Shown one piece after another: positions 2,911 to 51,620 of a DNA stretch of 64,000 bases. The notes beneath the pieces were generated by a model. It made no database searches. It was not told the origin of the DNA and worked only from the letters and a program-made list of their open reading frames with translations. The DNA comes from Desulfobacteraceae bacterium Eth-SRB2 (GTDB lineage Bacteria > Desulfobacterota > Desulfobacteria > Desulfobacterales > UBA11574). The number at the start of each line of letters is the position of its first letter. Position 1 is the first letter of the stretch. The stretch is from positions 16,017-80,016 of the forward strand of contig RPGQ01000024.1 in assembly GCA_004193595.1 (NCBI GenBank), given 5' to 3'. A program made the position numbers and the translations under genes.

Positions 2911-3257
2911 AATTGTATGCTGACAGATATTGGTTAAGTTGTCAAGACAATTTTACACTTCGAAATGCGTAATCCGTCAATAAACAATATATAAATGTCA
3001 AAAATTTAACACCGTAACACATTTCCAATCAAACATTGTTATCAACATCATTCAGATTTGGCATAGTTTTTTTGCCGTAACAGGCTCCTAATATCGTCTC
3101 TGATGACTTAATTGATAAAAAATAGATACAATCACTGCATTGGCACAATTTGTGCTTAATTTCTGTTTGGCTATCAATCACATTGGAAAGGCTTACAAGT
3201 ATATTCTAAAATTCATACTTAAACAAAAAGACAAACCGACCGATGATAAGATTAAAG

Positions 3258-3492
3258 ATAGGCGTTCACGGGTTCAAAGGTTCAGGGGTTCAAGGTTCCA
3301 TTCTTGTCCCCGGACTGCATTTGGGATGCGTATTTACGAGAAAAGCGTTAGTTTCGTCAGTCCTAATCCAAAATTTGAAGCTAAATTGGTAATTACTTGG
3401 GAAAATGAACATTTGTAACAAGGACTTTGGATCTTCAATGCCTTCTTTGTCATTAACCCTGAACGTTGAACCCTGAACCTGTGAACGGTTAC
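3258..3492. mobile_element. MITE family 1, copy A (about 235 bp, inverted relative to copies B/C)
   Basis: About 90% identical to the reverse complement of the elements at 45358-45590 and 48178-48411. Termini built from GTTCA(R)G repeats and end ...CCTGTGAACGGTTAC. Flanked by an 8-bp direct repeat GATTAAAG (3250-3257 and 3493-3500), consistent with a target-site duplication. The six-frame ORF 3140-3418 inside it is presumed spurious. Confidence 0.7.
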
Positions 3493-3504
3493 GATTAAAG
3501 ATCT

Positions 3505-4410
3505 ATGTTAGATCCGAGGGTATTTTTTCGTTTAAATCTTATCGATATAACGGTAACTATGGAAACAGCACACACATTATTTAAAAAATTTATTACCGCT
3601 AAAACCCTGCCTCATGTTGCAATACGTCTGACCAAATTGATTTCTGATGAAAACAGCACCATGCAGGATTTTGAAAATATGATGAAGATGGATCCCACAC
3701 TGGTTTTACGCCTGCTGCGCGTAGTGAACAGCTCCTATTATGCATTGCGGCAAAAAGTCGACAGTATCTCCAGAGCCGTTGTCGTCATCGGTATGAATAA
3801 CCTGCGCAACATGATTGTTACAGAAGCGCTCAAGGATATATTCAAGGAAAGTCCGGGGGAAAGCGACTTTTCCAGAAACCGGTTGTGGCTTCATTGTGCT
3901 GCGGTCAGTATTTGCAGCCAAATGATTTCAGAGCGAATTTTTGGGCAAAACGGTGAAGATGCTTTTTTATGCGGAATTCTCCATGACATTGGAATGATCG
4001 TTGAAGATCAGACGGCACACGATTTATTTAACCATGCGTGTAAAGCCTATGCACAGGACTCCAGACCCATTATCCATCATGAAAAAGAAATTATCGGTAC
4101 CGACCACTGTGAGTTAGGACACCTTTTAGCTAAAGACTGGAAACTACCTTTTGAAGTGCAGGAGGGGATTAAGCAACACCATAAAGCTCTCAAAGAAGTC
4201 TCCCCTTCAAGCATTACCGGAATAATACAGATATCAGAATATATTGTATCTAAATTGGACTATACTGCCATGCCTGGAATGAATACCGTGCTTTCATCCC
4301 CTTTGGCTGCCCATATTCGTGAAAATGTTGAGGAATATAAAGCTCTGGTCAAAGATCTGCCTGATGAAATGTCAAGAGCCAGCGATCTTTATGAATCTCA
4401 AAAGGAGTAA
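3505..4410 (+). CDS. HDOD domain signalling protein
   Basis: HDOD signature region ([45 protein letters not shown]...[13 protein letters not shown]...[10 protein letters not shown]). ATG at 3505. An alternative start METAHTLF lies at 3559. Confidence 0.78.
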
Positions 4411-15308: not shown

Positions 15309-15584
15309 CAGGGTAAACACATTTAATTTCGGTGCAGCGCAGCGACGGCGTGTTTCTCTTGGAAACCGACTGACTGTTTGAAGGACTTTAGCACGCGTTA
15401 GCCCGAGCCGAATGAAATTATGACCTAAAAAATCAATGGGATAATTCAGCAACGAATTGTTCTTAATAACTCCGGCGCGGCTCGGGCTTACGGGTGCTTG
15501 AGCCCAAGTTTCAGTCGGTTGGAAAGAGATACACGCCGTCGTGGAGCGTTCTCCCTGTATTGGGATTCAAATGCGTTTGCCCTG
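15309..15584. mobile_element. MITE family 2 (276 bp) inserted just upstream of ilvA
   Basis: Terminal inverted repeats CAGGGTAAACACATTT (15309-15324) and AAATGCGTTTGCCCTG (15569-15584). Flanked by a 10-bp direct repeat CCCAACTATT (15299-15308 and 15585-15594), consistent with a TSD. The interior is rich in long palindromes. Confidence 0.7.
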
Positions 15585-21834: not shown

Positions 21835-22140
21835 TTTCAGATTGATATTAAAAACAAGTTAGTTCGCTTTGCCCCGCCTGCCATTGCAAGGCACGAGTGG
21901 GCAGGTCACAATTGGAATGTTGGAACACTGGAATATTGGGTTCTGGGAAAATGGAAAGTTGGGTTATTGCAAAATTTCTATTGACGGGAATTAAATAGAG
22001 GAATGTCATCTTCTTTAAATCATCATTCCATTATTCCATTATTCCATTATTCCATGTCCGAGTTAAAAGTATAAGCCTAAAAGATATCTTTAATTTCAAG
22101 AGATTGTAGAATTTCCAAGACGTTAAATTAACATTTTCGA
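21835..22140. repeat. intergenic repeat family 3, long copy (contains (CCATTATT)x3.5 tandem and degenerate TGGAA-like repeats)
   Basis: Shares ends with 44172-44311 (aagttagttcgct...cacaattggaatg / tccgagttaaaaRtataag.ctaaaa...aattaacat). Tandem cattccattattccattattccattattccatg at 22023-22056. Confidence 0.55.
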
Positions 22141-27694: not shown

Positions 27695-27742
27695 AATATT
27701 CCCCCCCGGATACGTTTACGTTTGAAATGATCTAAAGTTCCT

Positions 27743-27925
27743 GAACCGCAAATGCACACTAATGCACACATATAATATTTTTTAATTTGCGTGTATTCGT
27801 GTTCATTCGTGGTTAAAAAAGCCCTTTCATAACAGTGAGCTAAACTTCATAAACCGCAAATGCACACTAATGCACACATATAATATTTTTTAATTTGCGT
27901 GTATTCGTGTCCATTCGTGGTTAAC
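27743..27925. repeat. tandem duplication (2 x 74 nt, period 109 nt) of an imperfectly palindromic module in a divergent promoter region
   Basis: Units 27743-27816 and 27852-27925 differ at one position. Each reads aaccgcaaatgcacactaatgcacaca-TATAAT-attttttaatttgcgtgtattcgtgt(t/c)cattcgtggttaa: internal direct 9-mers (aatgcacac x2; attcgtg x2) around a perfect TATAAT. Confidence 0.7.
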
Positions 27926-27989: not shown

Positions 27990-29054
27990 ATGAAAATAGC
28001 ATTTATTCATTATCATCTCAAAACCGGCGGTGTAACCACGGTGTTACGGCAACAGGTGGAAACGCTCCGTGATACGTGTGACATGATGGTATTAACCGGC
28101 GCGCCTCCGGAATCGTCCTTTGTTTGCGACACCGTTCATATACCGGGACTGGGTTACGATCGCGGGGATCAAAATAGATCGGACCCCGAAGATATTGCAG
28201 CCGCCATCACCCGGGCGATCCATCTAAAATGGAAAGGCGGATGCGACCTTATCCATGTTCATAACCCCACACTGGCAAAAAACAGGGATTTTTTGAAAAT
28301 TCTCAAAGCGCTCCAAAACAAAAAGATCAAACTTTTTCTTCAGATCCATGATTTTGCGGAAGACGGTCGACCCTTAGTATACTTTTCTGAAGATGAATAT
28401 ATTCAAGACTGCCATTATGGGGTCATTAATTCAAGGGATTACAATATCCTGATCGAATCGGGATTAAAAGAAAAGGGGTTGCATAAAATTTTCAACACCA
28501 TAACTCCTTTTAATTTAAGTGCAAAAGGAGCACCCCCAAAAAACCTGGTTTTGTATCCGATTCGAGCACTCCGGAGAAAAAATATTGGGGAAGCAATTCT
28601 TATCTCCCTGTTTTTCAAAAACAATGAAACCCTTGCAATTACCCTTCCGCCCAACAGCCCGGCAGATCTGGAAAGCCATGCGCAATGGAAGGCGTTTGTA
28701 GAAGAAAAGAATCTGAATGTAATATTTGAAGCAGGTTTATCCCATGAATTTTCAGAACTTGTCATGTCCGCCAGGTTTATTATCACCACAAGTATTACCG
28801 AGGGATTCGGATTTTCATTTCTCGAACCCTGGACTGCAAAAAAAATCCTATGGGGAAGGAATCTACCGGAAATATGCCATGATTTTGAAAAAAAGGGGGT
28901 CTGGTTGGATCACCTTTACACACGTCTGGCGGTTCCCGTGGAATGGCTCGGTAAAGAAAAGTTATTTAGGACCTGGAAGGCGTGCATACGAAAAGCGTGT
29001 TCCCTATTCGGCATAGTTATCGATAACACGAAAATCGCCCAGTCACTTCTTTAA
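27990..29054 (+). CDS. GT-B fold glycosyltransferase (family-4-like)
   Basis: N-terminus MKIAFIHYHLKTGGVTTV. C-terminal region resembles a retaining GT-B nucleotide-sugar domain. The ORF-track start at 27954 is TTG. The ATG at 27990 is preferred. Confidence 0.6.
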   Translation: MKIAFIHYHLKTGGVTTVLRQQVETLRDTCDMMVLTGAPPESSFVCDTVHIPGLGYDRGDQNRSDPEDIAAAITRAIHLKWKGGCDLIHVHNPTLAKNRDFLKILKALQNKKIKLFLQIHDFAEDGRPLVYFSEDEYIQDCHYGVINSRDYNILIESGLKEKGLHKIFNTITPFNLSAKGAPPKNLVLYPIRALRRKNIGEAILISLFFKNNETLAITLPPNSPADLESHAQWKAFVEEKNLNVIFEAGLSHEFSELVMSARFIITTSITEGFGFSFLEPWTAKKILWGRNLPEICHDFEKKGVWLDHLYTRLAVPVEWLGKEKLFRTWKACIRKACSLFGIVIDNTKIAQSLL

Positions 29055-29123
29055 AAATTCTAATAATCGCGCCGAATCTGAGAGAGAAAGCTTTTTGGTT
29101 TTCGATATATTTTTCACCGTATT

Positions 29124-30586
29124 CTACAACGGCAAAACACTTTCAAAGTTTAGCCCTCCTTTGGCACCCGTGTTTACAGCCGCGCCGTTGAATGGTATCC
29201 TGGTTTTTTTCCACCTCATGGTCAAAATCCGCCCTGACTTTGAAAATTTTATTAAATTTTGAATCATGGTTCTGGAGCAGGTGAAAACAGGTGGATAGCC
29301 GCTGAACAAGACAACCTTTGACTTCCAGCGGGGACCGGTTCCGGCCGAAGGGATGATGTGCCGTATCCCAGGCCTGGAAGCAAGATCTTCTATAAAAGGA
29401 GCTTTGTTTCTTGTAACGCACGTTTGAGCGCTTCCCACACGAACGCCGGGTTCATGAGGTGATAATTCGATTTCCATTATCAGACAACCGCCGTTGGCTC
29501 TGGCGGAGAGTGATCCGGCCTGGACCATGGTAAAGTCTTTGTGATAATGGTTCTATATGCTCTTTTTCAATTTGGCCGAAAACATTGTGATGCGTCGGAT
29601 TTGTTTCAAAATAACCGGGGCGCTCTTTTAAAGGATTTTGATCTACCAACACATTGACCTTATAGTTGAAAGAGGTTTGGCATTTGAAACATGAAGCCCT
29701 CAATGGGTGATTTTGCTTCCTGAGAAGATATAAAACTCTTTAACGTTTTCCAGAATATCCTCCTGCAATCTTCGTCCAGAGCAGAATGCTTTGCATCCCT
29801 TGTATTGTTCCTCCTTTACATTATCTATCCGTTGTTTCACTACGAACAAAGGATTTCTTCCATGAGCTTTCAACTTGAGAAGTCATTACCTGGTTGATTT
29901 TATTGCCTCGACCGTATAATGACTTCTGGATTGAACCATACTGATCCTTTCCTCGATTTCGATTTCTGTTTCCTCTGAAGGCCATAAACTCCTCCGGTGA
30001 AATCGGCTTTTCCTTTTTAACAATGGGGATGGTTTGATACCCAATTTTGGTCCTGTTAAGCTGATATTATCTCTTCTTTTCCTTTGCCGACGCTTCGAGC
30101 GCTCTTGAATGACCTTCTTTTGTTGATCAGGAATAGCCTTTTTGGATTTCAGATTGTCTCTGGTGATACGATCTCATGCTCAAAGGCTTTGGGCAACTCT
30201 TTTCAGATCATCAATTAACTTGTTTATTGTTTTACTGAACTGGTTGCTTTGCTCTGTGGGCACGGGCTTCGGTTTTGGGGTGGTATTCATCCTTAAAATT
30301 GCTGACCATGCACCAATCCACGGGTGACGGAAGCGGTTTTTGCTTGCTTGTCGACCAGGTCTCTGATGATGGTAGATTTACCGGTGCCTTCTAATCCTGT
30401 GACAAAAAAATGTTGTAGCCCCGACTTTCTTACATGTTCAGGCCGAAGTTTATGGCTCCGAACCGCCCGTTCCTGTCCGATGACTTCATCCAGGGATTTA
30501 CTTCCGCAGTATTTCTTAAAGGTAAACATCTTGTGATCACATATTGACCTAAGATCCGAAGGCTTTAATTCGCATGTTTTTTCATA
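29124..30586 (-). pseudogene. degraded inverted duplicate of the 5' 60% of the Lon-like protease gene
   Basis: Fragments in three frames match the intact gene at 33619. 30293-30529 matches MFTFK..DEVIGQERAV..FVTGLEGTGKSTIIRDLVDKQAKT. 29452-29703 matches YKVNVLVDQ...FETNPTHHNVFGQIEK. 29143-29421 matches LLQNHDSKFNKIFKVRADFDHEVEKNQDTIQ exactly. The start region has A6 versus A7, which frameshifts it. Confidence 0.78.
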
Positions 30587-31426
30587 ATCTTCTTCTCCTT
30601 AAAAAATAAAAATTCAATAACCGGATAATCATCACAGGGCAATTATAAGGATGTTCTATATTCATATGTTTTTTAAAATTTAGCAAATTATTAAGTTTCA
30701 AGATAATGATGAGGGTGTGATGGAAAGGATACCGGACAGCCTGTCAAGAATTTGTCGATTTTATTTTATTTGCTCACCAAGGTTTTTAACGCGGTTCTTA
30801 TTATAATATTATAACTATAAGGAATTATAATGAAAATATAGATATTTAACATGGGAATGATGCCACTGGCATTTGCTATTGCAAAAATTAAGAAAAGAAG
30901 AATGTCAGCGTATATTTATGAGAAAAATATTGCATATCAACAGATATCGTAGGAGAGGAGACGGTTTGCCAAGCATGGAACCGGTTCAAAAGAAGTCGGC
31001 ACCGATAGATAGACGCCGGAAAGTGAGAGACGGCATAACCCTTAAAGGATTTTGATCGCAGGTAGAACAATGATCCATATTACAGTGGCTCCTGAGAGGC
31101 GTAGCAATATGGATAGAAGAAGTGGGATGGAATAATATGCTGTAAAATAAAATGGTTACCATCGCCCACAAAAGACTTTTACGAATGTTTCAATATTGCT
31201 TTTGCAGGAATCTTTCATATAAATTAAAAAAGCACAAAAATGTGAAAGTAAAGATCCGGGTCCAGAGGGGGCCTGGTTTTTGATTATCCCCAGAGGGATT
31301 TAGTTTGTCGGCATTTAACGATTTTACGAAGTAATGGAGTATTGGAGGGTGGAGTAATGGAAGAAACCCCTTTTCATCGCTCTCAGAAAACAGATCCCTG
31401 AGAAAATCTGAAAATTTAAAGCTCTT
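30587..31426. repeat. left arm (non-coding part) of the about 2.3-kb inverted duplication; mirror of 32781-33618
   Basis: The reverse complement of 30527-31426 aligns almost base-for-base with 32781-33680. A small ORF intact in the right arm is broken here (extra T plus TAG). Confidence 0.8.
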
Positions 31427-31572
31427 TTAAATCAACACTCCAATACTCCATTACCCGGTTGATTTATACGGGCAGAGCCATTGATTCTGACCCCGCAATG
31501 GGACAGGTTAATGGCCCAGCCTCCGCCCATAGGGAGGACCAGGGTTTTAGAACCCAATAAAAAACGGCTAAA

Positions 31573-32781
31573 TATGGATACAGACAATTATATGATAACG
31601 GTGTGCCCATCATGTAAATGCAGGTATCGGGTTCCTGAAGCTTTTATTGGACGAAAGGTTTCATGCAAGAAATGCGGTAGCGGTTTTAGTCTAAACTTAC
31701 AGGAAGAAAGCGCGCAAAAACAAAACCGGCAGGATGCCTCATCCGAACAGGGAGAGGTTTGGGAAGTCTTTCAAGATGATGCCTATTTGGTGATCGGCAA
31801 ACTGGCTGTTAAGTACAAGTTTATTAATGAAAAACAACTCCAAAAGGCTCTATTGATTCAAGAAGAGGGAAAACGAGCCGGGCAGAAGCTGTTATTGGGA
31901 GAGGTCCTGGTTGCTCATAGGATGATATCTCAAGCCCAGTTGGATCTTCTTTCTTCAGTACAGAAAATGGTTGAAGTTAGAAGACTGGATGTAAAATTCG
32001 GAGCCATTGCCGTGGGAGAAGGATTCACGACCCGTGATGAAATTGACAGAGCATTAGAGGAACAAAATAGGATATTCAAAGAGAAAAAAACAATTCAGTT
32101 GATCGGTGATATATTGATTGAATCCAAGGTGCTTACGGAAAATCAGCGCGATTCAGTCCTTAAAAGACAAAAGCGTTTTGAAAAAATTACATCTGATGAG
32201 CAAAAAAGGCCTGATGTTTCTGATTCCCAAGAACAGATTGAAAGTGATGCTGAATTTAATCTTACTGTTTCAGAAGACAAACTTAATGCCTTTATATCGA
32301 TAAAAAGAAAAGTTTCCGGCCCGATTACCATCGATAACATTAAAAATTTCCTTCAAATCAAAGGGATCGAATACGGAATAGTAAACGATGATCAAATAGC
32401 AGAGTACCTGAAAATTATCGACAACAAAAAGAGGCATTGAAAATTGCAGAAGGCAAACCCCCGGAATCCGGAAAAGATGAGCACATTAAATATTACTTTG
32501 AAACAGATTCGTTAAAAGTAGGAGCAATTAAAGAGGGCGGAGCCATAGACTTTAAAGACAGGGGAGATGTTCCTAACGTAAAAGAAGGAGATCTGCTTGT
32601 TGAAAAAATACCTGTTGTGGAAGGCAAGGCCGGGAAAGACGTATACGGCAGTCCAATACCCCCACAAAAACCCAATGATATAAAACTCAAAAATGGGAAA
32701 GGCACTAAAATTTCTGATGATCGGATTAAAATTATTGCTAAAATTGACGGCATACCTGAAATTTCTGCTATGGTAAAGTAA
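31573..32781 (+). pseudogene. Zn-ribbon / 4x T2SSE_N-like repeats / DUF342 (FapA-like) protein, frameshifted and 3'-truncated
   Basis: MJ0042-type zinc ribbon (ITVCPSCKCRYRVPEAFIGRKVSCKKCGSGF). Four roughly 25-aa repeats (IGKLAVKYKFINEKQLQKAL; LGEVLVAHRMISQAQLDLL; FGAIAVGEGFTTRDEIDRAL; IGDILIESKVLTENQRDSVL). Then FapA_N-like (FLQIKGIEYGIVNDDQI) and GKPPESGKDEHI...GKAGKDVYGSPIPPQKPNDIKL. The reading frame shifts -1 at the A-run near 32426-32430 (ORFs 31481-32440 and 32437-32781). The ORF ends exactly at the repeat-arm junction (32781), before the expected DUF342 beta-helix region. Confidence 0.6.
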
Positions 32782-35090
32782 AAGAGCTTTAAATTTTCAG
32801 ATTTTCTCCAGGGATCTGTTTTCTGAGAGCGATGAAAAAAGGGGTTTCTTCCATTACTCCACCACTCCAATACTCCATTACTTCGTAAATCGTTAAATGC
32901 CGACAAACTAAATCCCCTCTGGGGATAATCAAAGCCGGGCCCTCTGGACCCGGATCTTTACTTTTCACATTTTGTGCTTTTTAATTTATATGAAAGATTC
33001 CTGCAAAAGCAATATTGAAACATTCGTAAAAAGTCTTTTGTGGGCGATGGTAACCATTTTATTTTACAGCATATTATTCCATCCCACTTCTTCTATCCAT
33101 ATTGCTACGCCTCTCAGGGCCACTGTAATATGGATCATTGTTCTGCCTGCGATCAAATCCTTTAAGGGTTATGCCGTCTCTCACTTTCCGGCGTCTATCT
33201 ATCGGTGCCGACTTCTTTTGAACCGGTTCCATATGGCAAACCGTCTCCTCTCCTACGATATCTGTTGATATGCAATATTTTTTTCTCATAAATATACGCT
33301 GACATTCTTCTTTCTTAATTTTTGCAATAACCGTACCAGTGGCATCATTCCCATGTTAAATATCTATATTTTCATTATAATTCATATAGTTATAATATTA
33401 TAATAAGAACCGCGTTAAAAAAACCTTGGTGAGCAAATAAAATAAAATCGACAAATTCTTGACAGGCTGTCCGGTATCCTTTCCATCACACCCTCATCAT
33501 TATCTTAAAACTTAATAATTGCTAAATTTTAAAAAAAAACATATGAATATAGAACATCCTTATAATTGCCCTGTGATGATTATCCGGTTATTAATTTTTA
33601 TTTTTTAAGGAGAAGATTATGAAAAAAACATGCGAATTAAAGCCTTCGGATCTTAGGTCAATATGTGATCACAAGATGTTTACCTTTAAAAATACTGCGG
33701 AAGTAAATCCCCTGGATGAAGTCATCGGACAGGAACGGGCGGTTCAGGCCATAAACTTCGGCCTGAACATGAAAAGTCCGGGGTACAACATTTTTGTCAC
33801 AGGATTAGAAGGCACCGGTAAATCTACCATCATCAGAGACCTGGTCGACAAGCAAGCAAAAACCCTTCCGTCACCCGTGGATTGGTGCATGGTCAACAAT
33901 TTTAAGGATGAATACCACCCCAAAACCATTTCCGTGCCCACAGGCAAAGCAACCCGGTTCAGTAAAACAATAAACAAGTTAATTGATGATCTGAAAAAAG
34001 AGTTGCCCAAAGCCTTTGAGCATGAATCGTATCACCAGAGACAATCTGAAATCCAAAAAAAGTATTCTGATCAACAAAAAGAGGTCATTCAGAAACTCGA
34101 AGCGTCGGCAAAGGAAAAGAATATCCAGCTTAACAGGACCAAAACCGGGTATCAAACCATCCCCATTGTTAAGGAAAAGCCGATTTCACCGGAGGAGTTT
34201 ATGGCCCTTCCAGAGGAAACGAAATCCGAAATCGAGGAAAGGATCAGTATGGTTCAATCCGAAGTCGACGCCACGGTCCGAGAACTTAATAAAATCAACC
34301 AGGTAATGACTTCTCAAGTTGAAAAGCTCATGGAAGAAATCGCTTTGTTCGTAGTGAAACAGCGGATAGATAATGTAAAGGAACAATACAAGGGATGCAA
34401 AGACATTCTGGCCTATCTGGACGAGGTGCAGGAGGATATTCTGGAAAACGTTAAGGATTTTATATCTTCTCAGGAAGCAAAATCACCCATTGAGGGCTTC
34501 ATGTTTCAATCTGCCAAACCCTCTTTTCAACGCTATAAGGTCAATGTGTTGGTAGATCAAAAATCTTTAAAAGGCGCCCCGGTTATTTTTGAAACAAATC
34601 CGACGCATCACAATGTTTTCGGCCAAATTGAAAAAAGAGCCCATATGGGAACCATTATCACAGACTTTACCATGGTCCAGGCCGGATCACTCCTTAGAGC
34701 CAACGGCGGTTATCTGATAATGGAAATCGAGTCTATCCTCATGAACCCGTTCGTGTGGGAAGCGCTCAAACGTGCGTTACAAAACAAGCTCCTTTTTATA
34801 GAAGATCTTGCTTCAGGCCTGGGATACGGCACATCATCCCTTCGGCCGGAACCGGTCCCGCTGGAAGTCAAGGTTGTCTTGTTCGGCAGCTATCACCTGT
34901 TTCACCTGCTCCAGAACCATGATTCAAAATTTAATAAAATTTTCAAAGTCAGGGCGGATTTTGACCATGAGGTGGAAAAAAACCAGGATACCATTCAACA
35001 ATACGCTCGCTTTATTTCCCGGGTATGCAAAGAAGAGGAACTCCTGCCGTTAACCCCCAAAGGTGTTGCCGCCATTGTAGAATACGGTGA
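32781..35090. repeat. right arm of the inverted duplication (upstream region plus 5' part of the intact Lon-like gene)
   Basis: See left arm. Estimated 93-97% nucleotide identity to the left copy. Confidence 0.78.
33074..33232 (-). CDS. small basic protein with DRR/ERR repeats (hypothetical), divergent from the Lon-like gene
   Basis: MEPVQKKSAPIDRRRKVRDGITLKGFDRRQNNDPYYSGPERRSNMDRRSGME. Intact only in the right arm. The ORF-track start is at 33289. Confidence 0.35.
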   Translation of the reverse strand: MEPVQKKSAPIDRRRKVRDGITLKGFDRRQNNDPYYSGPERRSNMDRRSGME

Positions 35091-36036
35091 AAAATATATC
35101 GAAAACCAAAAAAAGCTTTCTCTCAGATTCGGCGCGATTATGGGAATTTTAAAAGAGGCTGACTACTGGGCAAAGAAAAGGAATGCAAAACGGGTTTCAG
35201 ACAAAGATGTTATCACCGCTTTCAGTGAATACCGATTTCGGTATAACCTTTATGAAGAAAAAATACACGAATCCTACGTGGATGATACCATTATGATCGA
35301 TGTGAAAGGGGATGTTGCCGGACAGGTAAATGCCCTTTCCGTATTTCAAATCGGCGATTTTATGTTTGGGCGTCCTTCCCGAATCACCGCCGAAACCTAT
35401 ATGGGCAAGCAGGGGGTTGTTAATATTGAACGGGAAGCCAAGCTGAGCGGAAAGACCCATGACAAAGGCATTCTGATTCTCTCCGGTTATTTGGGACGAA
35501 CTTTCGCGCAAAACTACCCATTAAGTTTATCCATCAGCATCACTTTTGAGCAAAGCTACAGCGGCATCGACGGCGACAGCGCTTCTTCGACGGAACTGTA
35601 TGCCGTTATCTCAAGCCTTTCAAACATTCCCATCCATCAGGGGATCGCGGTAACCGGTTCAGTGAATCAAAAAGGGCAAATTCAGGCCATCGGAGGGGTT
35701 AATCAGAAAATTGAAGGATTTTTTGACGTCTGTAAAAGCAAAGGACTTACCGGCAAACAGGGAGTATTAATTCCCCGGGCCAATGTAAAAAATCTGATGC
35801 TTAAAAAAGATGTGATCGATGCCGTAAGAAAAGGAAAATTTCATATCTATCAGGTTTCTACGATTGAAGAAGGAATAGAGATATTAACAGATGTTCCTGC
35901 AGGAACTCCGGATAAAGAGGACTACTTTCCCGAAGGAACCGTTTACGGCAAGGTACAGGAAAAGCTTAAACGATATCTGGAACAATTATTTAAACTTAAA
36001 AAACAATTTGAGGACGAAGACGAAACAACCGTATAG
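33619..36036 (+). CDS. Lon-like ATP-dependent protease (COG1067 type: AAA+ module plus S16 Lon C-terminal protease domain)
   Basis: Walker A VTGLEGTGKST. S16 domain with catalytic-Ser context SYSGIDGDSASSTELYAVISSL and a downstream Lys (IGGVNQKIEG). AAGGAG RBS. 805 aa. Confidence 0.85.
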   Translation: MKKTCELKPSDLRSICDHKMFTFKNTAEVNPLDEVIGQERAVQAINFGLNMKSPGYNIFVTGLEGTGKSTIIRDLVDKQAKTLPSPVDWCMVNNFKDEYHPKTISVPTGKATRFSKTINKLIDDLKKELPKAFEHESYHQRQSEIQKKYSDQQKEVIQKLEASAKEKNIQLNRTKTGYQTIPIVKEKPISPEEFMALPEETKSEIEERISMVQSEVDATVRELNKINQVMTSQVEKLMEEIALFVVKQRIDNVKEQYKGCKDILAYLDEVQEDILENVKDFISSQEAKSPIEGFMFQSAKPSFQRYKVNVLVDQKSLKGAPVIFETNPTHHNVFGQIEKRAHMGTIITDFTMVQAGSLLRANGGYLIMEIESILMNPFVWEALKRALQNKLLFIEDLASGLGYGTSSLRPEPVPLEVKVVLFGSYHLFHLLQNHDSKFNKIFKVRADFDHEVEKNQDTIQQYARFISRVCKEEELLPLTPKGVAAIVEYGEKYIENQKKLSLRFGAIMGILKEADYWAKKRNAKRVSDKDVITAFSEYRFRYNLYEEKIHESYVDDTIMIDVKGDVAGQVNALSVFQIGDFMFGRPSRITAETYMGKQGVVNIEREAKLSGKTHDKGILILSGYLGRTFAQNYPLSLSISITFEQSYSGIDGDSASSTELYAVISSLSNIPIHQGIAVTGSVNQKGQIQAIGGVNQKIEGFFDVCKSKGLTGKQGVLIPRANVKNLMLKKDVIDAVRKGKFHIYQVSTIEEGIEILTDVPAGTPDKEDYFPEGTVYGKVQEKLKRYLEQLFKLKKQFEDEDETTV

Positions 36037-38906: not shown

Positions 38907-38988
38907 AATTCAAGAAAGGATAAACGTATTTGATTTCGTTGTAGCGTAGCGCTTTCCCTGTATTGGGATTCAAATGCGTTTGCCCTGA
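38907..38988. mobile_element. internally deleted MITE family 2 remnant
   Basis: Right end (ccctgtattgggattcaaatgcgtttgccctg) identical to 15553-15584. A degenerate left TIR (ggataaacgtatttga). Flanking direct repeat gaaattcaag(a). Confidence 0.5.
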
Positions 38989-44171: not shown

Positions 44172-44311
44172 GATCAAGTTAGTTCGCTGAGTTTATGCTG
44201 AGAAACGAAGTGCTCACAATTGGAATGTCCGAGTTAAAAATATAAGTCTAAAAAATACCTTTATTTCCAATAAATTGTAAAATTTTCGAGATGTTTAATT
44301 AACATCGAGTT
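44172..44311. repeat. intergenic repeat family 3, short copy
   Basis: Homologous to the ends of 21835-22140. Lies immediately 5' of the radC start, just as the long copy lies 5' of the rsmG start. Confidence 0.5.
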
Positions 44312-45329
44312 CGTTTTTAAGATCGCGGGTCATCAGCCGGTGTACGGCCTCTTTGGGAGAAACATCGTTATAAAGAATATGGTATACTTCGTGGGAAATC
44401 GGCATGTCAACACCAAGCCTGCGTGACAGGTTATAAACCGACTTGGCTGTTTTGACGCCCTCTGCAACCATTCGCATTTCGGACAGGATATCCCTGAGCT
44501 TCATGCCCCCCCCTATCTTTTTTCCCACGGTATGGTTCCTGCTAACATTTCCGGTACAGGTCAGCACCAGGTCCCCGACGCCGGCGATCCCGGCAAAAGT
44601 ACGCGGGTCGGCGCCAAGCTTTAATCCCAGCCGACGCATTTCTGTCAGCCCCCTGGTAATCAGTGCCGCTCTTGTATTTAAACCCAGCCCTAGACCATCC
44701 ATAATCCCGGCGGCTATGGCAATAACATTTTTTACAGCGCCTCCCAGCTCAAGACCGATCATGTCATTGTTTGTATAAACCCTGAAATACGGAGTTGCAA
44801 ATAGCTGCTGAATATAGCCTGCTATTTTTTGGTCTTTTGATCCCACAGCGATAACGGTGGGAAATTTATTCGCTACCTCCCGCGCAAAACTCGGGCCTGA
44901 AAGAACTGCAAAAAAGTTTTCGGCAATTTCAGGGAGGGTCTCTTTGAGCACACCGGACATGGTCAAATGGGTTTTGTTCTCGATACCTTTGGAAGCCGAC
45001 ACAATAATCGTCCCGGGCGAAATATGTCCGCTAATTTTTTGAGCCGTCTCCCTCATAACATGGGACGGAACAACAATCAGTACAAGATCTTTTTTTAATA
45101 CCACTTCGGAAATATCGTTGGAAGGAAAAATATTTGCAGAAAGTTTAAAACCGGGAAGAAAAACTTTGTTTTCCCTGTATTCTTGGATCTGTTCTTTTAC
45201 TTCCTTTTCAAATACCCAGAAATCGACTTTAAAACCTTTTAAAGCCAAAAGATCGGCAAGAGCCGTACCCCAGCTTCCGGCACCCACAACACCGATCTTT
45301 ACGGCACTGACATCTATTTGATTTTTCAC
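44295..45329 (-). CDS. gpsA: NAD(P)H-dependent glycerol-3-phosphate dehydrogenase
   Basis: IGVVGAGSWGTALA Rossmann motif. GTG start. Confidence 0.88.
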   Translation of the reverse strand: MKNQIDVSAVKIGVVGAGSWGTALADLLALKGFKVDFWVFEKEVKEQIQEYRENKVFLPGFKLSANIFPSNDISEVVLKKDLVLIVVPSHVMRETAQKISGHISPGTIIVSASKGIENKTHLTMSGVLKETLPEIAENFFAVLSGPSFAREVANKFPTVIAVGSKDQKIAGYIQQLFATPYFRVYTNNDMIGLELGGAVKNVIAIAAGIMDGLGLGLNTRAALITRGLTEMRRLGLKLGADPRTFAGIAGVGDLVLTCTGNVSRNHTVGKKIGGGMKLRDILSEMRMVAEGVKTAKSVYNLSRRLGVDMPISHEVYHILYNDVSPKEAVHRLMTRDLKNELDVN

Positions 45330-45357
45330 TGGCTAATCACCTCAACTATAAATGATC

Positions 45358-45590
45358 GTATCCGTTCACGGGTTCAGGGTTCAACGTTCAGGGTTAAGGA
45401 CAAAAAAGCAATGAAGATCCGAAGTCCTCGTTACAAATGTTCATTTTTCCAAGTATTTGCCAATTTGGCTTCAAATTTTGGATTAGGCCTAACGAAACTG
45501 ACGCTTTTCTCGTAAATACGCATCCCAAATGTAGCCCGTGGACGAGAATGGAACCTTGAACCCCTGAACCTTTGAACCGTGAACGGTTAC
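45358..45590. mobile_element. MITE family 1, copy B (233 bp) at the 3' end of gyrA
   Basis: TIRs GTATCCGTTCACGG...CCGTGAACGGTTAC. 8-bp TSD AAATGATC on both sides. The gyrA TAA stop (45587-45589) lies within the terminal GGTTAC. Confidence 0.78.
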
Positions 45591-48022
45591 AAATGATCTT
45601 CCTTTTCCGCGAGCCGTGCAACACCGGCAACTTTTTCTTCGGGTGACAGCCCGATAAGCGTTACCCCCTGGGTGTTACGGCTGATCACAGAAATTTGGCT
45701 CACCGACATTCGTATCAGTTTTCCTGTATCGGCCATTAACATCAGGTCGTCGTCGTCATCAACCAACAGTATTGCCACGACCTGTCCGTTTCGCTTACTT
45801 GTCTTAATGGTAATGACACCCTTGCCCCCGCGTCTCTGGAGAGGATACTCATCAATTGAAGTTCTTTTCCCGTACCCGTTTTCCGTTGCCGCAAACAGGG
45901 TCTGGCCATGGCTTAGAACCTCCATGCCAACAATTCGGTCCCCTTTGGCAACCCTCAATCCGTGAACGCCCCTTGAGACACGGCCGCTCGGTCGAACGTC
46001 GGACTCGTGAAAGCGTATGGATTTGCCCGTGGCAGAACCTAAAAAGATATTCCGGGTCCCGTCTGTTATCCTTGCTGCAATCAATTCGTCACCCGGAACC
46101 AAGCTTAAAGCGATGATACCGCCGGATCTGGGTCTGGAAAACGCCATAAGATCCGTCTTTTTGACCAGTCCGTTTCGGGTTGCCATAATGATATAATACC
46201 CCGGCTCAAATACCGAGACATCAAGCACGGTAGTAAGTTTCTCATCCTTTCCCAGGTTAAGAAGATTAACGATTGCTTTTCCTCGGCTCATGCGGCCGGC
46301 CTGGGGAATATCGTACACTTTGCACCAGTAAACCCTTCCCTGGTTTGTAAAAAATAGAAACGTATGGTGGGTGGACGCCACAAAGAGATTCGCAATAAAA
46401 TCTTCATCCTTAACTCCCATGGCTGTCTTTCCTTTGCCACCGCGCTGCTGTTTCCGGTAAAGGGTAATGGGATTCCGTTTTATATAACCGCTTTTTGAAA
46501 TGGTGACAACCATGTCCTCTTCAACAATCATATCCTCAATGGTTATCTCTTTTGTTGATTCAACAATCTCAGTCCGTCGCTCATCACCATACTCTTGCTG
46601 TATTTGTGTAAGCTCGTCCTTGATAATATTTTTCACAAGACGCTCACTGCCTAAAATCTCTTTGTACCAGGCAATATCCTTGAGAGTATTCTTGTATTCT
46701 TCCAGAATTTTTTCCTGCTCCAAACCGGTAAGCCGCTGCAGACGCATATCCAGGATGGCCTGGGCCTGTATCACCGTCAGGTCGTATGTCCGAACCAGCC
46801 CTTTTTTGGCCTCGTCCGGCGATTTGGATTGGCGAATCAGAGATACGACATCATCAAGATTTTCAAGGGCGATTTTTAAGCCTTCCAGGATATGGGCCCG
46901 CGCTTCAGCCTTTTTCAGGTCATATCGGGTCCGGCGGATAATAATCTCCCTGCGGTGAAGAATGAAATGCTCAAGAATCTTTTTCAAAGAGAGTTGTTGG
47001 GGCTGGTTGTTCACAATGGCAAGAAAAATGATGCCGAAGCTGTTTTCCATCCGCGTGTGCTTGAAAAGCTGATTAATGATCACCTCCGCAAACTGATCTT
47101 TTTTCAGCCCCACCGCGATCCGCATACCTTCCCGGTCCGACTCATCCCTTATATATCGTACCCCTTCGACCTGCTTTTTTCTTATCAGGTCCGCAATTTT
47201 TTCGATAAGTTTTGCCTTGTTCACCTGATAAGGAAGCTCCGTGACAACGATTGTCTCTCTTCCTGTCCTTTTGTCTTTTTCGATCACGGCTCTCGCCCTG
47301 ATTCGGATGATGCCCCGACCGGTTGTATATGCGTCATAAATTCCTTTGGTGCCGTAAATAATACCGGCAGTGGGAAAGTCAGGGCCCGGGATATAAGCCA
47401 AAAGGTCTTGAGATGTTAGATCAGGATCATCTATGACTGCCTTTGTGGCTTCAATGACTTCAAAAAGATTATGAGGCGGGATGTTGGTGGCCATACCAAC
47501 GGCGATACCCGAAGAACCGTTTATTAAGAGGTTGGGGGCTTTGGCCGGAAGTACACAAGGCTCTGTCAAAGAATCATCATAATTCGGCACAAACTCAACG
47601 GTTTCCTTATCCAGGTCCTCCATCATCTCATGAGCCAAACGCATCATTCTGACTTCAGTATACCTCATTGCAGCCGGAGGGTCGCCATCCACGGAACCAA
47701 AATTGCCCTGGCCGTCTACAAGAGGATACCGTAAAGAAAAATCCTGGGCCATCCGTACAATGGTATCATAAACCGCAGTATCACCATGGGGATGATATTT
47801 ACCGATAACATCACCGACGATGCGGGCGGATTTTTTATACGCTTTGTTATAATCGTTTTTAAGCTCTCGCATTGCAAAGAGTATGCGTCTGTGGACGGGT
47901 TTCAGGCCGTCGCGCACTTCCGGGAGTGCTCTCCCGATGATGACACTCATGGCATAATCGAGATACGACTTTTTCATCTCGCTCTCGATACTGATCTGAG
48001 CCAACTTTTCTGTATTCAACAT
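45587..48022 (-). CDS. gyrA: DNA gyrase subunit A
   Basis: [29 protein letters not shown]. Active-site Tyr region and C-terminal beta-pinwheel repeats. 811 aa. Confidence 0.93.
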
Positions 48023-48177
48023 ATTAAACCACCCGCCTGAACCTTGAACCTTTGAACCCTATACGGTTAAGGGTTAGTATTTTTGTAAGTGTTCACAGAT
48101 TTTTTAAAATCACAAATTACAAGCACCAAATTTCAAATAAATTCCAAATGCCAATAACCTAAACTATTTCTATTTTT

Positions 48178-48411
48178 GTATCCGTTCACGGGTTCAGGGT
48201 TCAACGTTCAGGGTTAAGGACAAAAAAAGCAATGAAGATCCGAAGTCCTCGTTACAAATGTTCATTTTTCCAAGTATTTGCCAATTTGGCTTCAAATTTT
48301 GGATTAGGCCTAACAAAACTGACGCTTTTCTCGTAAATACGCATCCCAAATGTAGCCCGTGGACGAGAATGGAACCTTGAACCCCTGAACCTTTGAACCG
48401 TGAACGGTTAC
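48178..48411. mobile_element. MITE family 1, copy C (234 bp), 156 bp upstream of gyrA
   Basis: Same orientation as copy B and over 98% identical to it. 8-bp TSD CTATTTTT. Confidence 0.78.
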
Positions 48412-48577
48412 CTATTTTTTTAGTATTGATGAAAATATTTTTTTCAATTCGTTTGCTTTTCTTCAAGATCATAAGGTTTCGAATTTTGAATTTCGGTCAT
48501 TGTGATTTGTTTGTTTTTTGGGATTTGTTATTTGGAATTTCCACAAAATCAACTACTCCATGAACCGTTACTATTTT

Positions 48578-49669
48578 TCAATCCTTACAGTTTTTAATGC
48601 TTACGGGATCAACCAGTTGTTGATAACTGGTATAATAAATATCGGTTAATGTTAAAAAAGCAGTGGCAACCAGAGGGCCGTAAATAATACCCAGGATTCC
48701 GAACATCTTCAATCCCCCGATAATAGATAGAAAAACAAGGAGCGTATGCATTTTAACCCGTTTACCCACCAGTTTTGGTTTTAACAAATATTCAATTCCA
48801 CCGGAAAGTATAATGTAAAAAACAACAAAAAATATCCCTGATGCAATCCGCATTTTTAAAAATAGATATAGAGCCGCGGGAATAAATACAACTCCGATTC
48901 CTATGATGGGAAGAAACGCGAGCAGGGCCATTATAACCCCCCATAAAAACGGTGAATTAAAACCAAAAAGAAAAAAAACGATGCCTCCTGCCACACCCTG
49001 AATCAGACCGCAAAAGCCATTGCCGATAAGAACAGCACCGGCCATGTCCTTAAATTTTTGAATCAGTTTTTCATCCTGTTCCTTTGGCAGCGGAGAAAGA
49101 TCGATGATAAACGCAACAAGTTTGTCCCCGTCAAATAAAAGATAATAGATAATAAGGAGCATAAAAAAGAAATATAGAAAAAAATTGAGTACATTCGAGG
49201 CAATAGAACTGGCCTGCTGAAATAGAAAGAGGCCGACGAATTTTCCGAGTTCTGAAACCGCCTTATTTAATTCTTCACCGGTTATTTCCATATTTAAACT
49301 AGAAAGGACAAGGTTTACTCTTTCAAGAACCCTGCTGCTTTCAAGCAGCGGCTTGATTTGGTCGCTGATTACCCCGCCTTTTCCCATAAGATACAGAGCG
49401 TACGCCTCTTTTGACAAAATGCCTACAAAAAAAACGGTCGGGATAAACAGGATAAAAAATATTAAAGCGCAGGTTAGCAGCGATGCAAGAATAGAATTAA
49501 ATTTTCTGTTTAAAAAATTATAAACCGGTTTAAAAATGCCGGTTACAACAGCGGCAAGAACAATAACAGACATAAAGGGCCAGAAAAGCCGGCCAAGAAA
49601 AAAAGCTGACAAAAGAAAAAGGGCCAAAAAAAACCACAAAATATTATTATGGGACGTTCTATCCGGCAT
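48578..49669 (-). CDS. AI-2E family (UPF0118/PerM-like) transporter
   Basis: Eight hydrophobic segments and conserved LIGNGFCGLIQGVAGG. Confidence 0.78.
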   Translation of the reverse strand: MPDRTSHNNILWFFLALFLLSAFFLGRLFWPFMSVIVLAAVVTGIFKPVYNFLNRKFNSILASLLTCALIFFILFIPTVFFVGILSKEAYALYLMGKGGVISDQIKPLLESSRVLERVNLVLSSLNMEITGEELNKAVSELGKFVGLFLFQQASSIASNVLNFFLYFFFMLLIIYYLLFDGDKLVAFIIDLSPLPKEQDEKLIQKFKDMAGAVLIGNGFCGLIQGVAGGIVFFLFGFNSPFLWGVIMALLAFLPIIGIGVVFIPAALYLFLKMRIASGIFFVVFYIILSGGIEYLLKPKLVGKRVKMHTLLVFLSIIGGLKMFGILGIIYGPLVATAFLTLTDIYYTSYQQLVDPVSIKNCKD

Positions 49670-51256: not shown

Positions 51257-51620
51257 GGGGGCGAAACGGCTTCGACGGGGATAAAGAAGCATCGGCTGCA
51301 TGCCAAGCTCCTGCCGGCTTGTAAAAAAGGCGGGAAACTTAAAGTAATCGCAGACGATTATAATTACGCTTTAGCCGCTTAAGGCTAACGTCCTACCGGA
51401 TTATTCCTGCGCATCCGGCAAGGGCGTCGACAAGCAGGATAGCCGGTCCCGATATCCCGTTAACGGATCGGTCCTGCAGGCGGCTTTTGCGAAGGTTATG
51501 GGTTTCAGGCGATTGCGTCCGCACTCTTTTATCATCTATCTTGTTATCGTTTTCGGAGATCAGGTATTGCATTTCAATACAAAACAAGCCTTCCAGTAAA
51601 GGCGGAGTTTGATCAAAACA
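51257..51620 (+). ncRNA. ssrA: tmRNA-like (ssrA) sequence; 5' acceptor/TLD half and tag ORF recognisable, 3' T-arm/CCA not found
   Basis: GGGGGCGAAACGGCUUCGACGGGG 5' consensus. Tag reading frame gca gac gat tat aat tac gct tta gcc gct taa (51350-51382) encodes ADDYNYALAA*. The 3' end is approximate. Confidence 0.55.

Follow-up and report, generated by a model that had tools for sequence, protein, structure and literature searches.

The classical miniature inverted-repeat transposable elements (MITEs) of bacteria, represented by Correia/CREE in Neisseria, RUP in pneumococci, ERIC/IRU in enterobacteria, Nezha in cyanobacteria and Chunjie in Geobacter, are short, non-coding, multicopy and hairpin-forming sequences that bear terminal inverted repeats (TIRs) and are bordered by target-site duplications (TSDs). 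Their insertion sites are intergenic regions and the ends of genes; at the latter, a MITE may change a stop codon or provide a new one, and it may be transcribed together with its neighbours. MITEs also serve as borders of composite structures, such as the integron mobilization units and the Tn6645-type MITE pairs (Acinetobacter). In this work, we analysed a 64,000-nt stretch of the genome of Desulfobacteraceae bacterium Eth-SRB2 (GenBank assembly GCA_004193595.1, contig RPGQ01000024.1, positions 16,017 to 80,016; hereafter, the window), where the gyrA gene is bracketed by two MITEs of one family, B and C, and a third copy of the same family, A, occupies another intergenic region.

The elements of the window have much in common with the classical MITEs: they are short, non-coding and multicopy, possess TIRs and TSDs, and are prone to form hairpins. 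They are distinguished from Correia and RUP, whose TSD is the dinucleotide TA, by an 8-bp TSD, and from the classical MITEs in general by their sequence and by their host, which belongs to the uncultured SEEP-SRB2/Desulfatibia-like Desulfobacterales. A further difference is that here one of the insertions leaves the protein encoded at the insertion site unchanged, and that the same site appears to have been hit repeatedly in sister strains. Just as in the MITE-flanked composites, two direct copies of one family bracket a gene, and the outer termini at 45358 and 48411 are inverted relative to each other, thus delimiting a potential 3,054-bp unit for a transposase; however, the cargo in our case is a housekeeping gene that has kept its native place in the conserved gene order. 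Since the outer 8-mers differ (AAATGATC and CTATTTTT) and the two copies have separate empty sites in relatives, B-gyrA-C has not moved as a block.

Among the autonomous elements, the closest resemblance is to the IS66 family, which is characterized by inverted repeats (IRs) of 20-30 bp starting with GTAAGCG and by 8-bp direct repeats of the target (PMC11946415), as exemplified by the IR of ISPsk01, GTAAGCGTCCGG... (PMC12888890). Much as in IS66, IS679 and ISPsk01, many IRs of the MITE family begin with GTAA(G)CG or a close variant and are accompanied by an 8-bp duplication, and the first nine nucleotides of the family IR, GTAAGCGTTCAC..., coincide with those of ISPsk01 at eight positions. Unlike IS66, which is about 2.5 kb long, the MITEs span only 64-497 nt and lack tnpA, tnpB and tnpC; moreover, each of their ends bears four GGTTCA heptads. 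To our knowledge, such heptads are not a feature of any described IS66 member.

The explanation that best accounts for all the data, and to which we assign a probability of about 0.8, combines several statements: A, B and C belong to a MITE family likely driven by an IS66-type element; B entered silently at the gyrA stop codon; C came later, within another element, D; and the gyrA stop is a hot spot of insertion. An initial annotation, made from the letters of the window alone, had already described the three copies as MITEs. The IS66-like ends, the silent replacement of the stop codon, the nesting of C in D and the repeatedly hit site are the additions of the present analysis.

Three MITE copies and the silent insertion at the gyrA stop codon

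Copy B (45358..45590, + strand, 233 nt), delimited by reading the sequence, repeat finding and alignment, lies between gyrA and gpsA. Copies C (48178..48411, + strand, 234 nt) and A (3258..3492, − strand, 235 nt), delimited in the same way, are located upstream of gyrA inside element D and in the divergent intergenic region between the genes for a GntR/UTRA regulator (2185-2910, − strand) and an HDOD protein (3505-4410, + strand, counted from the first ATG listed), respectively. B and C point the same way, and all that distinguishes their sequences is one substitution and one single-base indel (a T in a T-run), while A is inverted relative to B and differs from it by 21 substitutions, which corresponds to about 90% identity. 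The 14-nt termini, GTATCCGTTCACGG and CCGTGAACGGTTAC, are complementary at 13 of 14 positions and continue inwards as an imperfect inverted repeat of about 40 nt comprising four GGTTCA(N) heptads per end, in agreement with the heptad-built TIRs reported initially. Each copy is framed by a perfect 8-mer of its own: AAATGATC at 45350..45357 and 45591..45598 for B (the right repeat, read on the gyrA strand, falls within the codons D-H-L), CTATTTTT at 48170..48177 and 48412..48419 for C, and GATTAAAG (+ strand) at 3250..3257 and 3493..3500 for A.

The TIR pattern was matched 14 times in the window against 3.0 matches expected, a number reached in none of 100 shuffles, and the heptad clusters were confined to the three copies and a single relic beside the gyrA start. 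The open reading frames (ORFs) overlapping A and C gave no Pfam matches, as befits short non-coding elements. Along with the TIRs and the TSDs of fixed length, the family shows two further hallmarks of MITEs, the dispersal of multiple copies and a presence/absence polymorphism with exact empty sites. As to the surroundings of A, the HDOD protein has homologues of 283 aa, so that translation probably begins some 18 codons past the first listed ATG (window positions 3505-3558); the distance between A and the HDOD gene downstream of it would then be about 65 nt instead of 12 nt.

The most informative copy is B. The gyrA gene (45587..48022, − strand), identified by its Pfam domains and by the 100% identity of its product to GyrA of Desulfobacteraceae bacterium Eth-SRB2, encodes 811 aa and ends with a TAA codon at 45587..45589 that corresponds to nucleotides 2-4 of the B end GTAAC; in other words, the stop lies inside the last four nucleotides of the element, whose right end GGTTAC holds it on the opposite strand. 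Thus, the suggestion of the initial annotation that B supplies the gyrA stop proved correct. The state before the insertion can be read in a related metagenomic strain, L124 (L numbers denote the loci compared), where gyrA has 97.9% nucleotide identity and the B site is exactly empty: GAAGATCATTTATAGTTGAGGTG, or, in codons, GAA GAT CAT TTA TAG TTGAGGTG. The B target GATCATTT is present there once, and gpsA starts 16 nt past the stop. The same empty junction was found in L131/L132, L138 and L140, and, with AAT AAT, in L120-123.

B entered the 8-bp target GATCATTT spanning the last gyrA codons. Because the element starts with G-TAA, the original ...CAT TTA TAG was turned into ...CAT TTG TAA, with the G and the TAA derived from the element. 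Comparison of the GyrA C-terminus with that of the relatives, which the initial annotation had advised, clearly showed that it reads EDHL both before the insertion (with TAG) and after it (with TAA), only the last codon being changed from TTA to TTG. The B insertion therefore left the GyrA protein unaltered (EDHL*). The duplicated target also left the ribosome-binding site (GAGGTG) and the GTG start of gpsA, the gene for NAD-dependent glycerol-3-phosphate dehydrogenase (44295..45329, − strand), intact just past the TSD. The distance from the gyrA stop to gpsA grew by 241 nt, from the original 16 nt to 257 nt. With GyrA unaltered and the gpsA start signals preserved, the insertion of B was tolerated in the tight gyrA-gpsA junction.

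The exact empty sites were found for the other two copies as well. In L125 (gyrA identity 95.9%), the D-bearing leader lacks C and reads ...CTAAAAAAATAGAAATAGTTTAGG..., with AAAAATAG present once, and in L207-L209, where the HDOD protein is 95% identical, the site of A is empty. A reciprocal case is provided by a contig of a metagenome-assembled genome (MAG), L111, which is about 89% identical to the window at 13-19 kb and bears a family copy where the window has none. The exact empty sites in related strains indicate that A, B and C are genuine insertions, in full accord with the MITE nature ascribed to them initially. Furthermore, B and C proved to be independent insertions, as had been deduced from their separate TSDs: B is common to the window, L118, L119 and L125, while C was found in none of the relatives examined and is specific for the window strain. 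The results allow us to conclude that C was inserted later, in the window strain alone, into the pre-existing element D of the perM-gyrA spacer.

The MITE family and its IS66-like ends

To see how far the family extends, the GTDB representative genomes were scanned with a 20-base end pattern, which yielded at least 117 loci, mostly in MAGs of Desulfobacterales/Thermodesulfobacteriota (SEEP-SRB2, Ca. Desulfatibia, Desulfosarcina and others). Among the matches listed, some are full-length relatives of B with 70-93% identity, and many, 64-497 nt in length, share the ends alone. In the 40 external elements with both ends defined, the 8-bp TSD was perfect in 18 and had one mismatch in 10; the TSDs are 75% A+T and conform to a weakly palindromic consensus, approximately RAWWWWTY. 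When 15 members were aligned, the outer ~40 nt at both ends appeared essentially invariant, while the interiors diverged, with an overall identity of about 70%, just as expected if the ends are the cis-sites of a transposase. These data show that A, B and C belong to one family of non-autonomous DNA transposons (MITEs), which is widespread in uncultured Desulfobacterales.

The use of the element as a stop codon is not restricted to gyrA, since the TAA of the element also terminates a long ORF in each of L030 and L055; in L040, L080 and L112, it is the TSD that contains the stop of the ORF. In an unrelated MAG (L104, 253-1860), two inverted family ends flank nusA in the nusA-infB region, which is one more case of a bracketed housekeeping gene.

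The ends of the family, GTAA(C/G)CGTTCAC, together with the 8-bp duplication, seen with A, B, C and the external elements alike, of an AT-rich, weakly palindromic target, come close to the IS66 signature, a GTAAGCG IR combined with an 8-bp direct repeat; on these grounds, the family is tentatively assigned to IS66-derived MITEs. Judging from the termini and the 8-bp duplication, the family is most likely driven by an IS66-type element. Its DDE transposase, acting in trans, would recognise the ~40-nt ends, in which the GTAA(C/G)CGTTCAC terminus precedes four GGTTCA(N) heptads, and would cut with an 8-bp stagger at AT-rich, weakly palindromic targets (~RAWWWWTY), thereby moving the elements. A search of a literature library revealed no paper on an IS66-derived MITE or on Eth-SRB2.

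The gyrA-gpsA junction and the gyrA leader in related strains

The comparison of related strains revealed that the window is not alone in carrying B at this target: L118, L119 (= L127), L125 and L133/L134 also have it there, with the orientation unchanged. The B copies of L125, L133 and L134 have no substitutions relative to the window B, the L133/L134 copies being devoid of two heptads. At the same time, the flanking gyrA and gpsA sequences differ from those of the window by 4.1% in L125 and by 7-10% in L133; at the rate of the coding flanks, about 10 and about 19 substitutions, respectively, would be expected in B instead of the zero observed. Moreover, the L133 flanks are 98-99% identical to those of L129, which has no B, and the sequence becomes L129-like from 13 nt beyond the TSD. 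On the other hand, two derived B substitutions are common to L118 and L119, which indicates that within this clade B was inherited vertically. Taken together, these data suggest that B was recently acquired at the gyrA stop site at least twice independently, once in the lineage of the window, L118 and L119 and once in that of L133/L134, and that L125 probably represents a third independent acquisition.

In L126 and L128, the same junction harbours an unrelated TIR element, E (GAGTCTGTT...AACAGACTC), which provides a TGA stop; E is 146 nt long in L126 (3931-4080) and forms part of a 423-nt composite in L128 (3570-4000). The junctions of L129, L135 and L139 contain 10-11 extra bases, e.g., ...CAGATAT GA CTC AGTTATAG..., which look like excision footprints or deletion remnants of E. 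All this points to the gyrA stop/gpsA junction as an insertion hot spot. Its likely cause is a weak target preference combined with selection, this position and orientation being among the few that spare both genes of an essential operon. Indeed, since only a few positions within the 16-nt junction can accept an insert without damage to gyrA or gpsA, selection alone may create a hot spot.

On the other side of gyrA, the spacer separating it from its conserved upstream neighbour, a perM-like gene for a transporter of the AI-2E family (48578..49669, − strand), is highly variable in length among close relatives. The spacer comprises just 38 nt with two heptads in L120-123, relatives with 93% identity; 94 nt, including a relic terminus and heptads but no D, in L118, L119 and L124; 303 nt in L125, where a D of ~219 nt is added to the same sequence; 311 nt of unrelated sequence in L126 and L131; and 555 nt in the window, where C is nested in D. 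Comparison with relatives defines D as an AT-rich palindromic insert of ~219 nt without a TSD, split by C into a gyrA-proximal half (48063..48177) and a distal half (48420..48523). D without C is found in L125 (~1230-1450) but is absent from the closer relatives L118, L119 and L124, and it differs between the window and L125 by a single substitution although the flanks differ by 4%. A palindromic repeat resembling D, 'CACCAAATTCCAAA', is present in Ca. Desulfatibia vada (L046, 127-300).

Directly 5′ of the gyrA ribosome-binding site, the window bears a heptad array standing alone (48036..48062, − strand; GGGTTCAAAGGTTCAAGGTTCAGG when read on the gyrA strand), which looks like a relic of the end of an older family element and is found in most relatives. 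A TIR-like 14-mer, GTAACGGTTCATGG (48558..48571, − strand), with three mismatches to the TIR pattern GTATCCGTTCACGG, is probably the terminus of the same relic, parted from its heptads by D. It was also observed that GGTTCA(A) arrays of two to at least six heptads occur natively 5′ of the gyrA ribosome-binding site in most relatives, even in those free of MITEs (L135, ~1401-1539; L120, 3452-3491; window, 48036-48062). These arrays may be what is left of old element ends, or they may belong to the leader in their own right.

Alternative explanations and possible effects on gyrA

Several observations weigh against the explanation favoured above. With regard to the driver, the 3 kb inward of each of the 117 ends examined contained no transposase gene, and clustering of the ORFs of at least 150 aa located within 3 kb inside the ends at these 117 loci revealed no recurrent protein. 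Of the three candidates for long elements, L104 and L082 turned out to be MITE pairs around host genes (nusA in L104, host genes alone in L082). No match to the IS66 TnpB (tblastn) or to the TnpC motif 'CWAHxRRKF' (regular expression) was obtained in the 1.4 Mb of DNA retrieved, which is a weak negative. In addition, B and C start with GTAACCG and GTATCCG, not with the canonical GTAAGCG. As to the gyrA stop site, an 18-nt motif, ATAGTTKAGGTKATTRGC (15 of 18 positions identical), adjoins the targets of both B and C and hints at a more specific targeting than that proposed here. Finally, the zero divergence of B could partly reflect gene conversion between copies or the collapse of the repeat to the majority sequence by the assembler.

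The full-length insertion sequence with the same TIR that the initial annotation had advised looking for was not detected among the ends at the 117 loci or in the viral, plasmid and phage collections, where the elements had no relevant match at all. MAG assemblies are often deprived of insertion sequence copies. With no partner found, the elements might be driven by a transposase from another 8-bp-duplicating family (ISL3, IS256, IS6, IS1595 or ISAs1) instead of IS66, the more so as TSDs of 8 bp are made by families other than IS66, too. Nevertheless, we regard this as unlikely, as the GTAA/GTAAGCG terminus is the published hallmark of IS66, and among the matches listed it is exact in 22 of 119 ends, 51 of 119 starting with GTAACCG. 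The termini of the other families mentioned, as far as we know, differ from the GTAAGCG type.

Alternatively, the B allele might have originated once and been spread among the strains by homologous recombination in a local sweep. Marine sediments are a habitat that the strains of the group share, and in L125 the tract of identity does reach 35-48 nt past the element on each side. However, the identical tracts are barely longer than the element itself: in L133, the first difference on the left is met at 33 nt, and the right flank is L129-like already 13 nt past the TSD. RecA-dependent recombination usually needs a minimal length of homology, and such tracts are near or below it; besides, two independent transfers, both with minimal tracts, would be required. 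We therefore consider this scenario distinctly doubtful.

An equally doubtful possibility, in our opinion, is that MITEs land at the gyrA end in several lineages because this site is specifically targeted or favoured by positive selection, and that B-gyrA-C is a potential composite transposon or amplification unit. When the gyrA strand is read, two versions of the 18-nt motif, ATAGTTGAGGTGATTAGC and ATAGTTTAGGTTATTGGC, come just after the TSDs, at offset 0 for B and offset 2 for C, their complements on the + strand occupying window positions 45332-45349 and 48150-48167. The motif may be a target signal or may have arisen by chance; it was not seen beside about a dozen external copies whose flanks were read by eye. 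A strict target motif, ATAGTTKAGGT, which is present beside B and C, had to be rejected, since the external flanks do not share it and a weak palindromic AT-rich consensus alone emerges from them. Should the gyrA end be targeted, the insertion could be guided by the local sequence (the ATAGTTKAGGTKATT motif beside the B and C targets) or by DNA topology, and should it be positively selected, this could mean selection for uncoupling gyrA expression from that of gpsA.

Concerning amplification, B and C form direct repeats of 233 nt with 99% identity, 2.8 kb apart, and the remark of the initial annotation that B-gyrA-C would constitute a recombination-prone cassette is structurally valid. An unequal exchange between B and C would either delete gyrA, which is lethal, or duplicate it in tandem, so that the viable product would be amplification.

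Still less probable is a single ancient insertion of B, inherited vertically and then precisely excised through TSD-mediated slippage in the lineages where the site is empty. The identity of the site, orientation and TSD in all carriers and the two derived substitutions shared by L118 and L119 fit this scheme, and hairpin elements between 8-bp repeats are able to delete precisely. However, an old B should have accumulated about 10 substitutions by now in comparison with L125 and about 19 in comparison with L133, whereas none are seen between the window and L125, L133 or L134, and at least three or four independent precise losses would be needed (L124; L131/132; the L129 type; L138/L140/L120). 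Recurrent, recent acquisition of B thus remains our preferred explanation.

What do the insertions mean for the transcript? The predicted fold of the B RNA on the gyrA strand is strong (minimum free energy −71 kcal/mol, z = −3.3), and the gyrA-gpsA transcript is likely to have gained a 233-nt hairpin-prone segment, along with a leader lengthened by over 450 nt. On the other hand, RNAalifold applied to 15 members found compensatory changes in none of the 42 predicted pairs, and no Rfam family matched the element at the gathering threshold or at E ≤ 1, from which it follows that the element is not an RNA gene, and the candidate structured non-coding RNA was discarded. A consensus scan of B and C revealed neither a sigma-70-like nor a terminator-like site on the gyrA strand, the sole match being a weak 5-bp stem on the antisense strand at the C end. 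No less than 156 nt separate C, nested as it is in D, from the gyrA ATG, L125 has the same D leader without C, and the 38-nt spacer of some relatives indicates that gyrA is probably transcribed from further upstream. Hence, the rewiring of the gyrA promoter by C, thought probable in the initial annotation, is so far unsupported. The idea that the repeats are not selfish MITEs but host-selected modules that regulate gyrA (a structured RNA, a terminator/promoter cassette or protein-binding heptads) could appeal to the unusually strong conservation between strains, to the heptad arrays native to the gyrA leader of most relatives and to the strong predicted folds (z = −3.3 and −4.3), but is very improbable, given that the pairs do not covary, that the transposition ends alone are conserved, that no Rfam match and no promoter-like site on the gyrA strand were found and the sole terminator-like match is weak and antisense, that close relatives function with empty sites, and that TSDs at scattered, unrelated insertion sites are a signature of transposition.

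The window also contains repeats of other kinds. An inverted partial duplication of ~2.3 kb (29048-31324 vs. 32887-35156) shows a patchy identity of 75-100%; its right arm lies mostly in the 5′ part of a gene for a LonB/LonC-like AAA protease (33619-36036, + strand), its left arm has no long ORF, and the two arms flank ORFs with a FapA_N domain at 31481-32781. The mosaic identity could be due to gene conversion, a cassette system or an assembly artefact. Shorter dispersed or tandem repeats comprise an 89-nt pair with 94% identity (27728-27924), an 81-nt pair with 84% identity (22054-22134 and 44225-44305), whose second member is just downstream of gpsA and overlaps its stop, and a 47-nt pair with 89% identity (15538-15584 and 38941-38987), which suggests that further small repeat families exist in the genome. 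A tmRNA gene was found at 51265-51558 (Rfam RF00023, 56 bits), though it was not reported by ARAGORN.

In general, the data presented do not change any general principle, the elements being of a familiar kind and the case itself rather ordinary. What they do provide is a clean natural example of a MITE that entered a tightly packed essential operon without damage, the GTAA terminus of the element regenerating the stop codon and the target duplication regenerating the downstream ribosome-binding region. Moreover, the identical occupation of one site in diverged strains offers a testable case for distinguishing target preference from selection in the insertion of bacterial MITEs. The family itself, with its IS66-like ends and heptads, has not been described previously and occurs in abundance in marine sulfate reducers that are as yet uncultured (SEEP-SRB2, Eth-SRB2 and Desulfatibia-type); it is likely to cause contig breaks in the MAGs of its hosts and would be useful as a strain marker.

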